From: a virus
Taxonomy: Duplodnaviria; Heunggongvirae; Uroviricota; Caudoviricetes
Virus record (IMG/VR): IMGVR_UViG_643692022_000007
DNA: 38,874 nucleotides
Reading direction: 5' to 3' (one strand)
The first letter of the stretch is position 1, and every line of letters starts with the position of its first letter. The translations under genes and the position numbers were made by a program. This document shows, piece by piece, positions 11,995-22,443 of this stretch. The notes under the pieces are model-generated. The model was not told the origin of the DNA. It saw only the letters and a list, made by a program, of their open reading frames with translations, and made no database searches.

Positions 11995-13290
11995 TCACGC
12001 GGTCTGGTTAGGCAGACCAACACCAATTGCCTCTGGTCGTACAGCACATGCTGAATACCACACAGCAATACGGCACTTACCAGACAGAGTGTTGATATCA
12101 CCCTGCGTTGCGAAGATGCCGTTAACACCAATACCAGGAATGCTGAAGGAAGAAGTTTTCATGCCAGCAAACAGTTCATGAGTTACCGGGATCGGCTGAG
12201 ACAGCAGACGGATTGAGTCATCAGCCCAGAACACGTTAGCGGTGGTTGTTGCCACGTTCAGAACATTTACCGGAGTGGTATCAGCAAGAGAGGTGTTTAC
12301 GTTAGCGTAAGCCTTCTCTTCTTTTGTCAGTGACGCGTCATCCAGTGCAATCGGTTTCGGCGTGATTTCGAGGTGAGTACCATCGATCACACGGGTGATT
12401 GAGAAAGTAGCATCATCAGTCAGCACGTTCTTCGCCATCTGAGACAGGAATTTCACACCAGTGAAGCTGATTTTGTCGCCGCGCTTAAATCCGGTGGTGG
12501 AGGATACGGTCACCGTTGCAACACGGTTGTCGACGTTCTCTTTGTTACCATCGGTATCAAGGGTGTATGCCTGCGGCTTAAACTTCTGCGCACCAGAAAC
12601 AGTTACACCAGTAGCGGTTGACTTGGTAACTGCCGGAAGTTTCGGTGAGCGAAGAATTTCATCAAAGCCAGCAATCTGACGCTGAATAGTACCGTTGCGA
12701 TACGCTTCTTCAGGAACGCGACCGAAGATGTCACCATCTACCAGGTTGCGGCCTGCTTTGCGGTAATCGTCAGGGTTCAGGAAGTAACTGATGCCCATAT
12801 CGCGGTTTAGCTCACGGGAGAACATCAGGCGCTCTGCATCAGACACAAAATCCCAGCCAGACAGGCCAGTAGATGGACCAATTGCGCGGGTATCGTGAAC
12901 AACAAGTGAGCCCATTTCGGTTGCCTGTTTGGCAATTGCTGACTCAATGTTATTCGCCAGTTTTTTGGCGGATGCCTGGATGCGGCGACGGTAAGAACGC
13001 TCATCACACAGGTCATCTGCACGAAGCTCGAAGAAATCGTTATCCGGATCGCCCATGTTGCATTTTACGGAGAGTTCCAGAATCCCGGTTGCGTTGCCAG
13101 TTAAATCCCAGCCAGTCTGAGTTGGCGCTTCCTGCTCAACAGGCATCCACACGGTGTTGCTTGAACGTTGCATGGATTCTGCCGGAGGGGTGTATTTTGT
13201 CACTTTGGACGCCATTGGCGTCAGGTTCTGGACGGTTTCGATGATTTCATCCAGAGCATACGTGACCAGTTGACCTTCATTTAATGCCAT
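11995..13290 (-). CDS. gp5: Major capsid (coat) protein, P22 gp5 family
   Basis: 431 aa; close match along the whole length to remembered P22 coat protein (MALNEGQ...[12 protein letters not shown]...RDMGISYF...GLPNQTA). Confidence 0.95.
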
Positions 13291-14201
13291 TATCGAATTC
13301 CTTTATTCAGTTGCGCCTTGAGCTTACGGTACGTCTCTACATCCCCTTTGTTTGCTGCCGCTTCCATCTGCTTTTCAATCGCAGAGATATTTGCAGCAAC
13401 AGCGTGTCCCTGAATGGGTTCATCAGGTAACGGGGCTTCTGAAACAGGTTTGGCTCGAGGCTTTAGAGTTAAACGTTCTGACAGTCGAGTGAGTTCAATC
13501 AGCGCGGATTGCCCGTCCATCGCCAGCAACTGGCGTGTTTTCTCAGGATTAGCACCAAGGTGATACATGAGAGCGGCGGATTTCTCAGGGAAGAGGCGCA
13601 TGATGTCGGCACCGACTGCTGGCGGCACCAGTTGCATGAATGCATCCTCTTTCTCCTGATAGTCAGGGATATTGAGCTTTTCCGCTGCGTCGTAGTGCTT
13701 ACGGGCTGCCTCGACGTATTGCGCTGATTGCTGGGTGAACTCCTGAGTTTTGCGACCCTGCTCGGCGACAGCCTGGCTTCGTGCGTCCATAGCCTTGATC
13801 TGCCATTCACTGTTTGCCTGCTGGAAGGCAGCCAGTGCGCGGCTCTGGTCATAGTCGTACTTAGCCAGTGCGTCTTCGGAAAGATAATCGTTAGGGTCTG
13901 GTTGTTTTGGTAACTCAGGGTTCACCCGCAGGTGCTCCGGCAACTCTCCACGCTTAACCGCTTCCATCTGCTGCTCAAGCTCACGCTGGCGTTTGCGTTC
14001 GATGCGGCGACGGGCAAATTCAGCATTAGTTGCCGGGTCTTGTTTTGGTTTCTCATCGTCTTTCAGGACAATCTCGAAGCCTTCTTCCTGACCTGCGTTG
14101 TCGTTGGCATTATCGACAACTAAGCCATCAGCAGATGCCGCTGCATGATTGCCGGGCAGGGTTAATTCTTCAGAAGCCTGAATGTCGGTGGTTTGGTCCA
14201 T
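13290..14201 (-). CDS. gp8: Scaffolding protein, P22 gp8 family
   Basis: 303 aa, the same length as P22 gp8 and a close match ([50 protein letters not shown]...). Confidence 0.9.
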
Positions 14202-20006: not shown

Positions 20007-20474
20007 TCATCGAAGGCATTGCGTCCTGATGTATTCCTGAAGCGTTCTCAGTGCTGTTTGGTCGCGGATAATTCCGTCCCGGACACCGAGAACGTTTCGT
20101 CCAGCAACTGGAGAGAGTTCGACGGTGGCATCATTGCCCATGCCGGAGGTGCGGGAGGTTTCGGTTGAGGCTGGCACTTGACACTTTCCTTTGACGAGCA
20201 CCCTGCCACCATTATCAAGCTTGCGCCGAAGAGCATCATTTTCAGCTTTCGCATCAGCTAACTCCTTCGTGTATTTAGCATCGAGTGCATCAGCAGAACG
20301 CTGGCGCTGCTGCATGTCAGCGATGGTGGCGGTCGCCTGCTTCAGCTCACTGACTTTTTTATCACGCTGTTCTTTATAGGTAATGGCGTTATCACGGTAA
20401 TGATTAACCGCCCATGACAGACAGACGATGATGCAGATAACCAGAGCGGAGATAATCGCGGTTACTCTGCTCAT
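20007..20474 (-). CDS. Rz: Rz i-spanin
   Basis: [34 protein letters not shown]... matches remembered lambda Rz; N-terminal TM helix plus coiled coil; ATGA overlap with the endolysin stop. Confidence 0.85.
20048..20254 (-). CDS. Rz1: Rz1 o-spanin lipoprotein, embedded in the +1 frame of Rz
   Basis: [21 protein letters not shown]... has a signal peptide and lipobox (VAGC) followed by a Pro-rich segment ([11 protein letters not shown]), like lambda Rz1. Confidence 0.75.
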
Positions 20475-20974
20475 TGTTGCCCCCACAAACAGACTTCACG
20501 CTCAATCTCACGGCGAGTCATCAGCCCTTTCCATTGCTTACCGCCAGCGTATGTCCAGCGCCGTAGCTGATCACATGCGCCTTTGATATCACCCTGGTTT
20601 ATTTTGCGAAGAAGCGTCGATGTTCTGAAATTGCCAGCACCCACGTTGTAGACGAACGAGTAAAGAGCGCCGCGCGTTGTTTCCGGTATATCGACTTTGA
20701 TGTACGGGTTAATTTGTCTGGCGACCGTGGCAAGGTCTTTATTCAGGAGGGCTTTGCATTCTGCTTCGGTATACGTTTTACCGAGCATGATGTCTTTTCC
20801 GGTGTGTCCGTGACATACAGTCCATACACCAACAATATCTTTGTATGGTATGTAGCTAACACCTTCCAAACCATCGTTACCACTTGGTCCAGTGATTAAC
20901 ACAGATGCTATAGCAATAGCCCCGCCACTTATCGCCGCTATTACGCTATTTCGTAGTGCCGGTGACATTGCCAT
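20471..20974 (-). CDS. R: SAR-type endolysin (phage 21 R-like lysozyme)
   Basis: 167 aa; Gly/Ala-rich weakly hydrophobic N-terminus ([19 protein letters not shown]), then a lysozyme domain matching remembered phage 21 R. Confidence 0.85.
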
Positions 20975-21149
20975 TCAATCTGTCCTCGCGCTCTTTGCGC
21001 TTGTAGTACCAGTTGATGCCAAATGTGCCGACAGTACAAAGAATACCAATGATGACAGCCCAGTCATTCAGGGAGAGAATGCCACCCATCGCAGTCAGTC
21101 CTCCGAAGCTGTAACTGAACCATTCTCTGATTTTGTCCATACGGTACAT
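20946..21149 (-). CDS. S: Class II holin (pinholin-like) with dual-start motif
   Basis: 67 aa with two predicted TM helices and a charged C-terminus (KRKEREDR); N-terminal MYRMDKI has two Met separated by a basic residue; lies directly upstream of the SAR endolysin. Confidence 0.7.
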
Positions 21150-21155
21150 GCTCTA

Positions 21156-21171
21156 CCCCTTCATTGAGGGG
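21156..21171 (-). promoter_or_regulatory. Stem-loop just upstream of the holin start, analogous to the lambda sdi structure
   Basis: Minus-strand CCCCTCAATGAAGGGG hairpin a few nt before the holin ATG, where lambda has CCCCTTATTGGGGG. Confidence 0.5.
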
Positions 21172-21547
21172 ATTTGCTCTATTTAATTAGGAATAAGGTC
21201 GATTACTGATAGAACAAATCCAGGCTACTGTGTTTAGTAATCAGATTTGTTCGTGACCGATATGCACGGGCAAAACGGCAGGAGGTTGTTAGCGCAACCT
21301 CTTGCCACCCGCTTTCACGAAGGTCATGTGTAGAAGGCCGCAGCGTAACTATCACTGATGAATTCAGGATAGCCAGTGGCTACGGCTCAGTTTGGGTTGT
21401 GCTGTTGCTGGGCGGCGATGACGCCTGTACGCATTTGTTGATCCGGTTCTGCTTCCGGTATTCGCTTAATTCAGCACAACGGAAAGAGCACTCGGTGCAT
21501 TTAAGCCAAGCCCCATAAGGGAGAATGCTCTTACCTGTTGTGCAGAT

Positions 21548-21742
21548 ATAAAAAATCCCGAAACCGTTATGCAGGCTCTAACTATTACCTGCGAACTGTT
21601 TCGGGATTGCATTTTGCAGACCTCTCTGCCTGCGATGGTTGGAGTTCCAGACGATACGTCGAAGTGACCAACTAGGCGGAATCGGTAGTAAGCGCCGCCT
21701 CTTTTCATCTCACTACCACAACGAGCGAATTAACCCATCGTT
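21548..21742 (-). ncRNA. 6S-type short pR' transcript ending at tR'
   Basis: Region matches remembered lambda pR'-tR' sequence; terminator hairpin AATCCCGAAAC(A/C)GTT...AACGGTTTCGGGATT plus T-run at about 21549-21607. Confidence 0.7.
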
Positions 21743-21780
21743 GAGTCAAATTTACCCAATTTTATTCAATAAGTCAATAT
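21743..21780 (-). promoter_or_regulatory. Late promoter pR' with overlapping qut site
   Basis: Minus-strand TTGACTTATTGAATAAAATTGGGTAAATTTGACTCAACG, matching remembered lambda pR' (-35 TTGACT, -10 TAAATT), directly downstream of Q. Confidence 0.75.
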
Positions 21781-21819
21781 CATGCCGTTAATATGTTGCC
21801 ATCCGTGGCAATCATGCTG

Positions 21820-22443
21820 CTAACGTGTGACCGCGTTCAAAATGTTGTCTGCGATTGACTCTTCCTTGTGGCATTGCACCACCAGAGCGTCATACAGCGG
21901 CTTAACAGTGCGTGACCAGGTGGGTTGGGTAAGGTTTGGGATTAGCATCGTCACAGCGCGATATGCTGCGCTTGCTGGCATCCTTGAATAGCCGACGCCT
22001 TTGCATCTTCCGCACTCTTTCTCGACAACTCTCCCCCACTGCTCTGTTTTTGCTATATCAACCGCGCGGCCTGTACCGTGGCAATCTCTGCATCTTGCGC
22101 CCGGCGTGGCGGCACTACGGCAATAATCCGCATAAGCGAATGTTGCGAGCACTTGCAGTACCTTTGCCTTAGTATTTCCTTCAAGCTTTGCCACACCACG
22201 GTATTTCCCCGATACCTTGTGTGCAAATTGCATCAGATAGTTGATAGCCTTTTGTTTGTCGTTCTGGCTGAGTTCGTGCTTACCGCAGAATGCAGTCATA
22301 CCGAATCCGGCTTGTGATTGCGCCATCCCCATAGCAGCCATCACATCAGTACCGGAAAGAGAGTCAGAAGCCGTGGCCCGTGGTGAGTCGCTCATCATCG
22401 GGCTTTTTGGCGAATGAAATTTAGCTACGCTTTCGAGTCTCAT
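21820..22443 (-). CDS. Q: Late-gene antiterminator Q (lambda-type)
   Basis: 207 aa, essentially identical to remembered lambda Q ([49 protein letters not shown]...). Confidence 0.95.

Follow-up and report, generated by a model that had tools for sequence, protein, structure and literature searches.

Late control and lysis genes

The DNA that was analysed, here called the window, is a stretch of 38,874 nucleotides from a viral genome. The region considered in this study carries all of its genes on the minus strand (Table 1), and each feature that an earlier note on this DNA had named was found where that note had placed it. A module map was drawn from blastn searches and alignments against lambda, SPN9CC, Kapi1, Emek, phiKp_30, phage 21 and DLP12.

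Table 1. Features of the late control and lysis region, with positions in the window
Feature	Position	Strand	Basis and remarks
Q late antiterminator, lambda type	21820..22443	-	207 aa; 205/207 aa identical to lambda Q; PF03589, 191 bits
pR' late promoter, TTGACT-17 nt-TAAATT	21749..21777 (21777-21749)	-	promoter scan and lambda identity; lambda's Q-binding/pause region just downstream
6S RNA region, ending at tR'	21550..21742	-	identical to lambda; stem from ~21608, T-run 21555-21550
Conserved stem CACAAC-AGG-TAAGAGCA / TGCTCTT-TCC-GTTGTG with hypervariable loop (21525-21492)	21475..21542	-	122 instances compared
Variable leader module bounded by GTTGTGCTG ... CAGCACAAC	21396..21480	-	in certain other phages, tRNA genes occupy this slot
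Conserved 240-nt linker	21154..21392	-	pairwise blastn and alignment; common to lambda, SPN9CC and Kapi1, whichever holin comes next
sdi-like RNA hairpin CCCCU-CAAUGA-AGGGG	21156..21171 (21171-21156)	-	folds in isolation; -7.5 kcal/mol
Class II holin, HP1 family, MYRMDK...	20946..21149	-	67 aa; PF16080, 75.1 bits
SAR endolysin, R21/RrrD type	20471..20974	-	E = 1.8e-106 to 3HDE, 2.4e-107 to 4ZPU
Rz i-spanin	20007..20474	-	PF03245, 98 bits; N-terminal half lambda/21-like, C-terminal half P22/Kapi1-like
Rz1 o-spanin lipoprotein, embedded in Rz	20048..20254	-	PF06085, 71 bits; lipobox VAGC in translation

The upstream half of the region closely follows lambda. Positions 21819-21524 of the window, from the Q stop codon through pR', the 6S region and tR', are identical to lambda 44510-44805 (296/296 nt). 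The wider similarity runs from 23400 to 21154 at 96.7% and stops 5 nt short of the holin ATG (21149), with a single 31-nt substitution (21523-21493) inside the lambda-like stretch. Set against lambda element by element, Q is 99% identical, pR'-tR' 100%, and the leader 96-97% down to the Shine-Dalgarno sequence. By sequence criteria, all components of a lambda-type late control module are present: the Q type, the pR' hexamers, the Q-binding/pause region, 6S and tR'. The start and end of the 6S region were placed via lambda homology. A simple terminator scan did not flag tR', because the tR' loop exceeds the size that the scan permits. These alignments assign Q, pR', the 6S region, tR' and the untranslated leader to lambda, and the likeness to lambda described in the earlier note, including its extension to the holin start, was borne out. 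In phage 21, by contrast, Q, pR' and the leader all differ from those of the window.

Downstream of the holin, a SAR endolysin and an Rz/Rz1 pair follow, as had been proposed. The endolysin aligns end to end, N-terminal SAR region included, with the phage 21 lysozyme 3HDE (residues 3-167) and with RrrD (4ZPU). Few positions differ from R21, the catalytic residues are aligned, and a second in-frame ATG (20968) falls on R21 Met1. The corresponding lambda enzyme is the R transglycosylase, whereas that of the window is a SAR lysozyme. The Rz1 lipoprotein gene lies inside the i-spanin gene in another reading frame, which is the layout of a two-component spanin. Similarity to phage 21 DNA (90.8%) is found only at 20969-20227, which corresponds to the endolysin and the N-terminal half of Rz; the Rz breakpoint lies near 20227, and by alignment Rz/Rz1 is itself chimeric. 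Since the phage 21 similarity is limited to these parts, the cassette itself is a mosaic.

A leader stem with a hypervariable loop

The untranslated leader contains a conserved stem, written as RNA CACAAC-AGG-UAAGAGCA / UGCUCUU-UCC-GUUGUG (window 21542-21475). The phage instances that were compared carry 68 distinct loops, falling into 32 unrelated clusters; in lambda the stem is the same but the loop differs. The stem is always located between Q and the lysis genes, with a constant orientation and irrespective of the Q type; the neighbouring Q genes were assigned to three families, each scored by a separate query. The repeats that bound the adjacent variable module show a compensatory difference with respect to GTTGTGGTG/CACCACAAC in other phages. 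The stem adjoins a slot in which tRNA genes and morons occur.

Rfam returned no match at gathering thresholds over the whole window; for 21100-21850, the matches with E up to 10 did not rise above chance level. Full-text searches for the stem sequence gave nothing relevant, and a published description of the stem was not found. A tRNA was ruled out, as ARAGORN finds none in the window. AgvB and AsxR were ruled out as well: those anti-sRNAs vary at the 5' end, are conserved in their 3' part and carry a terminator. Within about 7 kb, the loop has no complementary or repeated partner beyond the level given by loops of other phages, and compared with shuffled sequence the loops hold no extra structure. 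We tentatively consider it possible that the untranslated late leader is no passive spacer, and that it may form a modular array of conserved RNA stems with hypervariable apical domains. The stem could be processed into phage-specific small RNAs, or it could mark the place where cassettes of late-leader cargo are exchanged, and it may be worth a study of its own.

The holin and its translational start

The holin is the 67-residue protein with an MYRM start and two predicted membrane segments that had been described before. In its hydropathy profile, the first segment is weak and the second strong. Its family is a different matter. The profile score for PF16080 stands well above the cut-off of 28.8 bits, while PF04971 (P21 holin S) reaches 19.5 bits, under its family cut-off of 26. 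BLASTP against S21 gives E = 0.27, and 21149-20970 has no nucleotide similarity to phage 21 DNA. An S21-type identity of the holin is thus refuted, so that in the earlier description of a phage-21-type lysis cassette the endolysin stands and the holin does not. The protein is 100% identical to gp13 of the Salmonella phages PS119, SPN9CC and BTP1, it occurs unchanged in 31 phage records, and one homologue is labelled 'HP1 family phage holin' in RefSeq.

The founding member of PF16080, the holin of Haemophilus phage HP1, acts as a pinholin. It is partnered with a SAR endolysin encoded by an overlapping gene, and was shown experimentally to form small, non-leaky lesions (PMC7312051). It has 78 aa, with neither a dual-start motif nor a known antiholin. 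S21 (71/68 pinholin-antiholin) belongs to another Pfam family and its pairwise similarity to the window holin is not significant, but the two share an M-x-x-M start, a weakly hydrophobic putative TMD1, a strongly hydrophobic putative TMD2 and a stem-loop over the Shine-Dalgarno sequence; Gly, Ala, Ser and Thr make up 9/18 residues of TMD1 in the window holin and 12/22 in S21.

The dual-start motif comprises Met1 (21149-21147) and Met4 (21140-21138), with Arg3 in between. Lambda S (S107/S105) likewise has two in-frame starts and an intervening basic residue. The second start lies 6 nt downstream in lambda S and 9 nt downstream in the window, and S105 has three membrane segments where two are predicted in the class II holin of the window. 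Just upstream, the 3' arm of the hairpin overlaps the Shine-Dalgarno sequence GGGGU (21159-21155), 5 nt from the AUG. The lambda sdi hairpin has the same CCCC/GGGG arms at the same distance from its first AUG; its loop is UUAUU on a 6-bp stem (-9.7 kcal/mol), while the less stable window hairpin has the loop CAAUGA on 5 bp. With both arms those of sdi and the loop alone different, we take the hairpin to descend from lambda sdi, so that a likeness first noted from its position is, by alignment, one of homology. In SPN9CC the hairpin has one extra G and the loop CAAUAA. The pattern CCCCT-CAATGA-AGGGG has a single match in the 38.9-kb window, with 0.08 expected by chance. An equally stable Shine-Dalgarno hairpin was found at 0/52 other gene starts in five lambdoid phages, where the mean hairpin energy was -0.97 kcal/mol.

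To place these features in a wider context, we surveyed 78 genomic loci of holin relatives from Citrobacter, Yersinia, Photorhabdus, Xenorhabdus, Morganella, Kluyvera and others. In 68 of 74 readable cases the start had the form M-x(1-2)-M with an intervening K or R, despite divergence of the surrounding codons, which makes the motif a conserved family trait. In the few exceptions, the Mets are separated by neutral or acidic residues (MIM, MTM, MCM, MADM) or there is just one Met. Since the HP1 holin also lacks a dual start, the motif is not universal in PF16080. Of 57 distinct upstream sequences, 52 have a hairpin adjacent to the Shine-Dalgarno sequence with an energy of -3 kcal/mol or lower. 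About 10 different stems occupy the same position (for example CACUCC/GGGGUG, CACUCU/GGAGUG, UCCGA/UCGGA, UCCGU/ACGGA and UCCC/GGGA); it is the position relative to the Shine-Dalgarno sequence and the ATG that is conserved. The mean hairpin energy of the relatives was -5.8 kcal/mol, against -3.2 when the 5' part was shuffled.

In the long-type subgroup, 89.6% of cells were paired, compared to 38-49% with the partners slid, and two pairs showed compensatory changes; given the modest covariation and the phylogenetic relatedness of the sequences, the compensatory support is moderate rather than strong. RNAalifold found no consensus structure for the short-type upstream regions, since loops of unequal length were misaligned by MAFFT, and a position-anchored hairpin search with controls was used in its place. 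The pairing probability of the Shine-Dalgarno sequence across the family was 0.71 versus 0.61 with the 5' part shuffled, a small effect on which no conclusion is based. Among papers that cite the SPN9CC lysis study (Shin et al. 2014, AEM 80:374), nothing on start codons was found.

The conservation of the dual start and of the Shine-Dalgarno hairpins in the relatives supports the proposal of the earlier note that the holin is under holin/antiholin start-site control. The dual-start behaviour of lambda S and S21, which have the same architecture, has been demonstrated (PMC9636201, PMC3359269). In lambda, sdi sets the holin:antiholin ratio (PMC3359269), and antiholins made from a dual start have one more positive charge at the N terminus (PMC9636201). 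By analogy with what is established for these two holins, the hairpin would restrict ribosome access to the Shine-Dalgarno sequence that serves Met1, so that initiation would occur at both Met1 and Met4. The 67-aa product, with the additional charge of Arg3, would be the antiholin, and the 64-aa product the holin. The latter is probably a pinholin, which would depolarise the membrane at a set time and thereby release and activate the membrane-tethered SAR endolysin, after which Rz/Rz1 would disrupt the outer membrane.

It might be argued that only one of the two Mets is used, and that the hairpin is a general translational damper, an mRNA-stabilising structure or a relic of the linker with no role in setting a ratio. 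The HP1 holin does function without a dual start (PMC7312051), and in some few relatives either the basic residue or the first Met is missing. Met4 is poorly spaced, at 14 nt from the GGGGU sequence. In the window itself, the pairing probability of the Shine-Dalgarno sequence (0.51) is no higher than in the shuffled control (0.63); the short hairpin folded in context has an unremarkable z-score of -1.0, and in a 141-nt context fold a competing 13-bp long-range linker stem overlaps two bases of its 5' arm. Against this reading, most readable relatives retain two Mets with K or R while nearby codons diverge, and hairpins built from many different stems persist at a position where, at other gene starts, they are rare. 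The demonstrated cases of lambda S and S21 also speak against it, and we consider a single start unlikely.

Origin of the joint between leader and holin

Alignment confirms that a mosaic boundary lies at the holin start: between a point 5 nt upstream of the holin ATG and the start of Rz, lambda S and R are exactly replaced by an HP1-family class II holin, of the gp13 type known from PS119, SPN9CC and BTP1, and a SAR endolysin of the phage 21 type. Among the sequences searched, the linker was found in 125 instances, of which 28 (the window counted) continue into an MYRM holin and 97 into lambda S, and the loop variant of the hairpin tracks the holin type. According to these alignments, the crossover with the lambda-type leader falls within the sdi hairpin loop: the linker, which is conserved among lambdoid phages, contributes the 5' arm CCCCU, and the 3' arm AGGGG is the Shine-Dalgarno sequence of the holin cassette itself.

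Among the closest known cassettes are those of the Salmonella P22-like phages PS119, SPN9CC, BTP1, SE1 and Emek (gp13 class II holin, gp19 SAR lysozyme, gp15 Rz). Their holin protein is 100% identical to that of the window, the DNA identity of linker, hairpin, holin, endolysin and Rz is 95-98.5%, and the linker-holin joint is the same. Upstream of the linker, these phages have either tRNA genes or a short terminator region of the P22 type, and their Q is often a different one, whereas the window has the full 6S/tR' leader of lambda. The identical linker-hairpin-MYRM holin joint was seen in 27 other sequences among those searched, mostly IMG/VR contigs. The full 1001-nt arrangement is present in 14 complete E. 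coli genomes at 97-99% identity, and at least 80% of it is covered in 18 of 5426 genomes.

In the version of the earlier note, the window is a direct lambda x phage 21 recombinant bearing an S21-type pinholin cassette. The 90.8% DNA identity of the endolysin and the N-terminal half of Rz (the half that phage 21 Rz has in common with the window) agrees with this, as do the size, the two-segment layout and the M-x-x-M start of the holin, which match those of S21. The profile scores, the BLASTP result and the missing DNA match over the holin argue against it. Mapping the breakpoint against both phages located the lambda boundary, but the phage 21 match left the holin out. In addition, phage 21 has only the first 61 nt of the linker in common with the window, and holin and endolysin as a unit correspond to the pair in PS119, SPN9CC and Emek (95-98.5% over 21322/21392 to ~20014). 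Such a direct exchange is very improbable: with the same joint between linker, hairpin and class II holin recurring widely, the sequences point to a joint that is old and common, with no special lambda x 21 event. Equally improbable is that the inverted repeat works on the opposite strand or as DNA, as a plus-strand terminator or a recombination site, since, although a terminator scan flags CCCCTTCATTGAGGGG on the plus strand and a module-type breakpoint lies inside the repeat, the plus-strand T-tract is weak (ATTTGCTCTA), no plus-strand gene ends there, the scan yield is at the shuffled-sequence level (1 found, 0.9 expected), and the relatives conserve position relative to the Shine-Dalgarno sequence and the ATG.

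The region as a whole is thus likely to belong to a mosaic lambda/P22-like (lambdoid) E. coli prophage built from pre-existing modules, of which it contains the late-gene control and the beginning of the lysis cassette. Many phages and E. coli genomes that have been sequenced already contain the arrangement. It is therefore an everyday instance of module shuffling, a textbook case of lambdoid exchange, and phage biology in general is little altered by it. What it may explain is the choice of boundary. The 5' arm of the hairpin would mimic the anti-Shine-Dalgarno sequence and the 3' arm is the Shine-Dalgarno sequence, so that a crossover in the loop would regenerate a working hairpin. Unrelated holin cassettes could in this way be swapped while the start-site control element is retained, and the complementarity of the arms would provide a concrete reason for the repeated use of this boundary. 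In Enterobacterales, almost all HP1-family class II holins have both a dual start and a Shine-Dalgarno hairpin, which suggests that the regulatory logic of lambda S and S21 extends to these proteins as a third family of holins.

Layout and mosaic origin of the late region

The late-region genes of the window are all encoded on the minus strand, and their coordinates are collected in the table. The whole window is an E. coli phage or prophage of the P22-like (Lederbergvirus-like) kind. In its structural genes it resembles phages Louie, APC_JM3.2 and IME10, and in its early region HF4s and HK544. Positions 1-38874 look like a near-complete, reverse-oriented prophage of the Lederbergvirus type whose nin/Q region is lambda-like, and any one phage record covers at most about 60% of either half.

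Table. Features of the late region, in window positions.
Feature	Position	Strand	Remark
Q	21820-22443	-	Pfam Antiterm (Q)
pR' hexamers	21777-21749	-	
Non-coding leader between Q and holin		-	about 670 nt
Interrupted stem CACAAC-AGG-TAAGAGCA ... TGCTCTT-TCC-GTTGTG	21542-21475	-	just 3' of tR'
Hypervariable loop of the stem	21492-21525	-	34 nt
Leader module bounded by GTTGTGCTG ... CAGCACAAC	21396-21480	-	85 nt
Inverted repeat CCCCT-CAATGA-AGGGG	21171-21156	-	sole pattern match in window
Holin	20946-21149	-	67 aa, N-terminus MYRMDK; Pfam Phage_holin_2_3
Endolysin	20471-20974	-	167 aa, 29-nt overlap with holin; Pfam Phage_lysozyme
Rz	20007-20474	-	Pfam Phage_lysis
Rz1	20048-20254	-	embedded in Rz; Pfam Rz1

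The earlier note had described the Q/pR'/6S/tR' segment as lambda-type, with similarity continuing to the holin start, and both statements hold. Lambda DNA matches 23400-21154 at 96.7% identity, and the match ends 5 nt before the holin ATG. Q is identical to lambda Q at 205/207 positions, and the segment 21819-21524, which extends from the Q stop and includes pR', the 6S region and tR', is identical to lambda 44510-44805 at all 296 of 296 nucleotides. Relative to lambda, a single 31-nt substitution lies 3' of tR' (21523-21493), beyond which the identity is 327/339 as far as the Shine-Dalgarno sequence. An ORF within the 6S/tR' region (21466-21708, minus strand) is the counterpart of lambda orf-64 and starts at the same base. 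It has 80 aa versus 64 because the substituted loop alters its 3' end. These features argue against a conserved protein.

The 240 nt directly upstream of the holin (21392-21154), hereafter the linker, are common to lambda, SPN9CC and Kapi1, since the matches of lambda and of SPN9CC (a P22-like Salmonella phage, 95.2% over 21392-20014) both span this interval. Both flanks of the linker differ among these phages: upstream there are tRNA genes or other terminators, and downstream either lambda S or a class II holin. Emek matches 21322-20468 at 98.5%. Phage 21 shares just the first 61 nt of the linker, and matches 20969-20227 (endolysin and N-terminal half of Rz) at 90.8%. The lambda match returns at the Rz start (20474-20227, 87.9%), so what has been replaced relative to lambda is exactly S plus R. 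Rz itself is chimeric with a breakpoint near 20227. Its N-terminal half is lambda/21-like, and Kapi1/P22-like sequence (96.6%) makes up its C-terminal half as well as the mature part of Rz1. Certain parts of Rz and Rz1 interact with each other, and the position of the breakpoint implies that these parts share one source.

A conserved stem with a hypervariable loop in the late leader

Lambda carries the same interrupted stem (about 44790-44865) with an unrelated 42-nt loop. Scanning IMG/VR with the stem pattern returned at least 122 instances with at least 68 distinct loops of 33-50 nt, forming at least 32 unrelated clusters at 75% identity. Among the matches listed, the loop lengths are not multiples of three, and the stem always has a single orientation, with Q on one side and the lysis genes on the other. 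Three types of neighbouring Q gene occur (lambda, 21 and SPN9CC), each scored with a separate query, and outside the stem the flanks are unrelated from context to context. In variants where UGU replaces CAC in the 5' arm, pairing is retained only via G-U wobble on the strand of the late transcript, which hints weakly that the structure acts as RNA. The stem had no match in Rfam, no paper describing it was found in the literature, and no local complementary partner was found for the loops. A tRNA was ruled out, as none was called by ARAGORN, and AgvB and AsxR were ruled out on comparison.

Other phages bound the neighbouring leader module with GTTGTGGTG ... CACCACAAC, a compensatory difference from the ends found in the window. 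In some contigs this slot holds tRNA genes (tRNA-Arg, tRNA-Met), and in one of them, L216, three stem modules in tandem are followed by two tRNA genes (12860-13660). The module ends in lambda and the window, UUGUGCU...AGCACAA-C-CCA, resemble an acceptor stem plus CCA; ARAGORN called no tRNA there.

Identity of the holin and the position of the joint

The lysis cassette had been taken for phage-21-type, a label that fits the endolysin but is wrong where the holin is concerned. Over its full length the endolysin aligns with the structures of R21, the SAR endolysin of phage 21 (3HDE), and DLP12 RrrD (4ZPU), with few differing positions, mostly within the first 15 residues. Its ORF begins M-A-M (20968-20974, minus strand) and R21 Met1 aligns with the second ATG at 20968, which leaves the true start uncertain and, with it, the extent of the holin overlap (29 or 23 nt). 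An S21-type holin was ruled out by three comparisons: the holin scores 75.1 bits against PF16080 (HP1 family), 19.5 bits against PF04971 (P21 holin S), under the family cut-off of 26, and E = 0.27 against S21 in BLASTP. It is 100% identical in 31 phage records, including gp13 of PS119, SPN9CC, BTP1, SE1 and Emek.

An exact 25-nt linker pattern gave at least 125 matches, 119 of them in IMG/VR stretches and the rest in several reference phages and the window itself. Among those listed, lambda S (MKM...) comes next in 97 and the MYRM holin in 28, including the window. The hairpin loop variant tracks the holin type in the same matches (TATTG with S; CAATGA or CAATAA with a class II holin), so the breakpoint falls where the 5' arm meets the loop (21167/21166). 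Because the joint lies in its loop, this sdi-type hairpin is rebuilt. The nearest holin relatives without the lambda linker, from Citrobacter and Raoultella (81-82% identity), carry ...GAGGTGAGAGC-ATG with their own hairpin before it, CACCCGC...GCGAGGUG. We infer that AGGGGTAGAGC-ATG of the window is part of the cassette and that the linker contributes the 5' arm only. Lambda tR' with a class II holin is the rarer combination, found only in L098 among the viral contigs listed. Fourteen complete E. coli genomes carry the full 1001-nt stretch 20900-21900 at 97-99%, and at least 80% of it was covered in 18 of 5426 genomes. The linker-holin joint is old and common, and the region is an ordinary, already widespread lambdoid mosaic.

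The start-site hairpin and a probable dual start in the holin family

The CCCCT...AGGGG hairpin reported before the holin is indeed there, its pattern matching once in the window versus 0.08 times expected by chance. The stem is 5 bp long and its energy is -7.5 kcal/mol, compared with -9.7 for lambda sdi, the stem-loop at the S start, and -10.2 for SPN9CC. Folded in context, the hairpin reaches a z-score of about -1, the Shine-Dalgarno pairing probability shows no excess over the shuffled control, and in a 141-nt context fold a 13-bp long-range linker stem competes for two hairpin bases. By itself, the window hairpin is weak evidence.

The competing inverted repeat is formed by GGATTTGTTCTAT (21208-21220) and ATAGAGCAAATCC (21172-21184), both on the minus strand. 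Its 3' arm includes the two C with which the sdi-like hairpin begins, and the long stem is favoured in the 141-nt fold. Among the matches listed, only 1 of 124 full-length instances differs in the 5' arm, and nearly all remaining variation is in the loop; the search pattern itself specified the 3' arm.

The comparative evidence is stronger. It comes from 78 genomic loci encoding holin relatives in Enterobacterales, 74 of them with readable starts. An M-x(1-2)-M motif with K or R between the methionines was present in 68 of these 74 (MTRM, MRM, MRRM, MQRM, MYRM, MKM and others), the exceptions having neutral residues (four) or a single Met (two). A hairpin of -3 kcal/mol or lower, ending 4-12 nt before the first AUG, is present in 52 of 57 distinct upstream sequences, with about 10 different stem sequences. 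Shuffling the 5' part raises the mean hairpin energy from -5.8 to -3.2 kcal/mol. For comparison, the mean at 52 other gene starts in five lambdoid phages was -0.97 kcal/mol, and none had a hairpin as stable as -7.5. Pairing reaches 89.6% of cells in the long-type subgroup, versus 38-49% with the partners slid, and compensatory changes occur at two pairs (GC to CG, AU to UA). The S21 start region of phage 21 also folds as a stem over the Shine-Dalgarno sequence.

Lambda S and S21 each yield two products, the holin and a longer antiholin whose N-terminus has one extra positive charge (PMC9636201), and in lambda the sdi structure sets the holin:antiholin ratio (PMC3359269). The HP1 holin acts as a pinholin with a SAR endolysin partner, without a dual start (PMC7312051). 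In the window, Met1 and Met4, the two in-frame candidate starts, may both be used; the 67-aa form would be the antiholin through Arg3, which lies between them, and initiation at Met1 would be limited by the hairpin. The predicted first membrane segment of the holin has Gly, Ala, Ser or Thr at 9 of 18 residues, versus 12 of 22 in S21, a composition that suggests a pinholin-like topology change. Membrane depolarisation would then free the SAR endolysin, and lysis would be finished by Rz/Rz1. Taken across the relatives, the start motifs and hairpins lend support to a proposed conserved dual-start control in this holin family.
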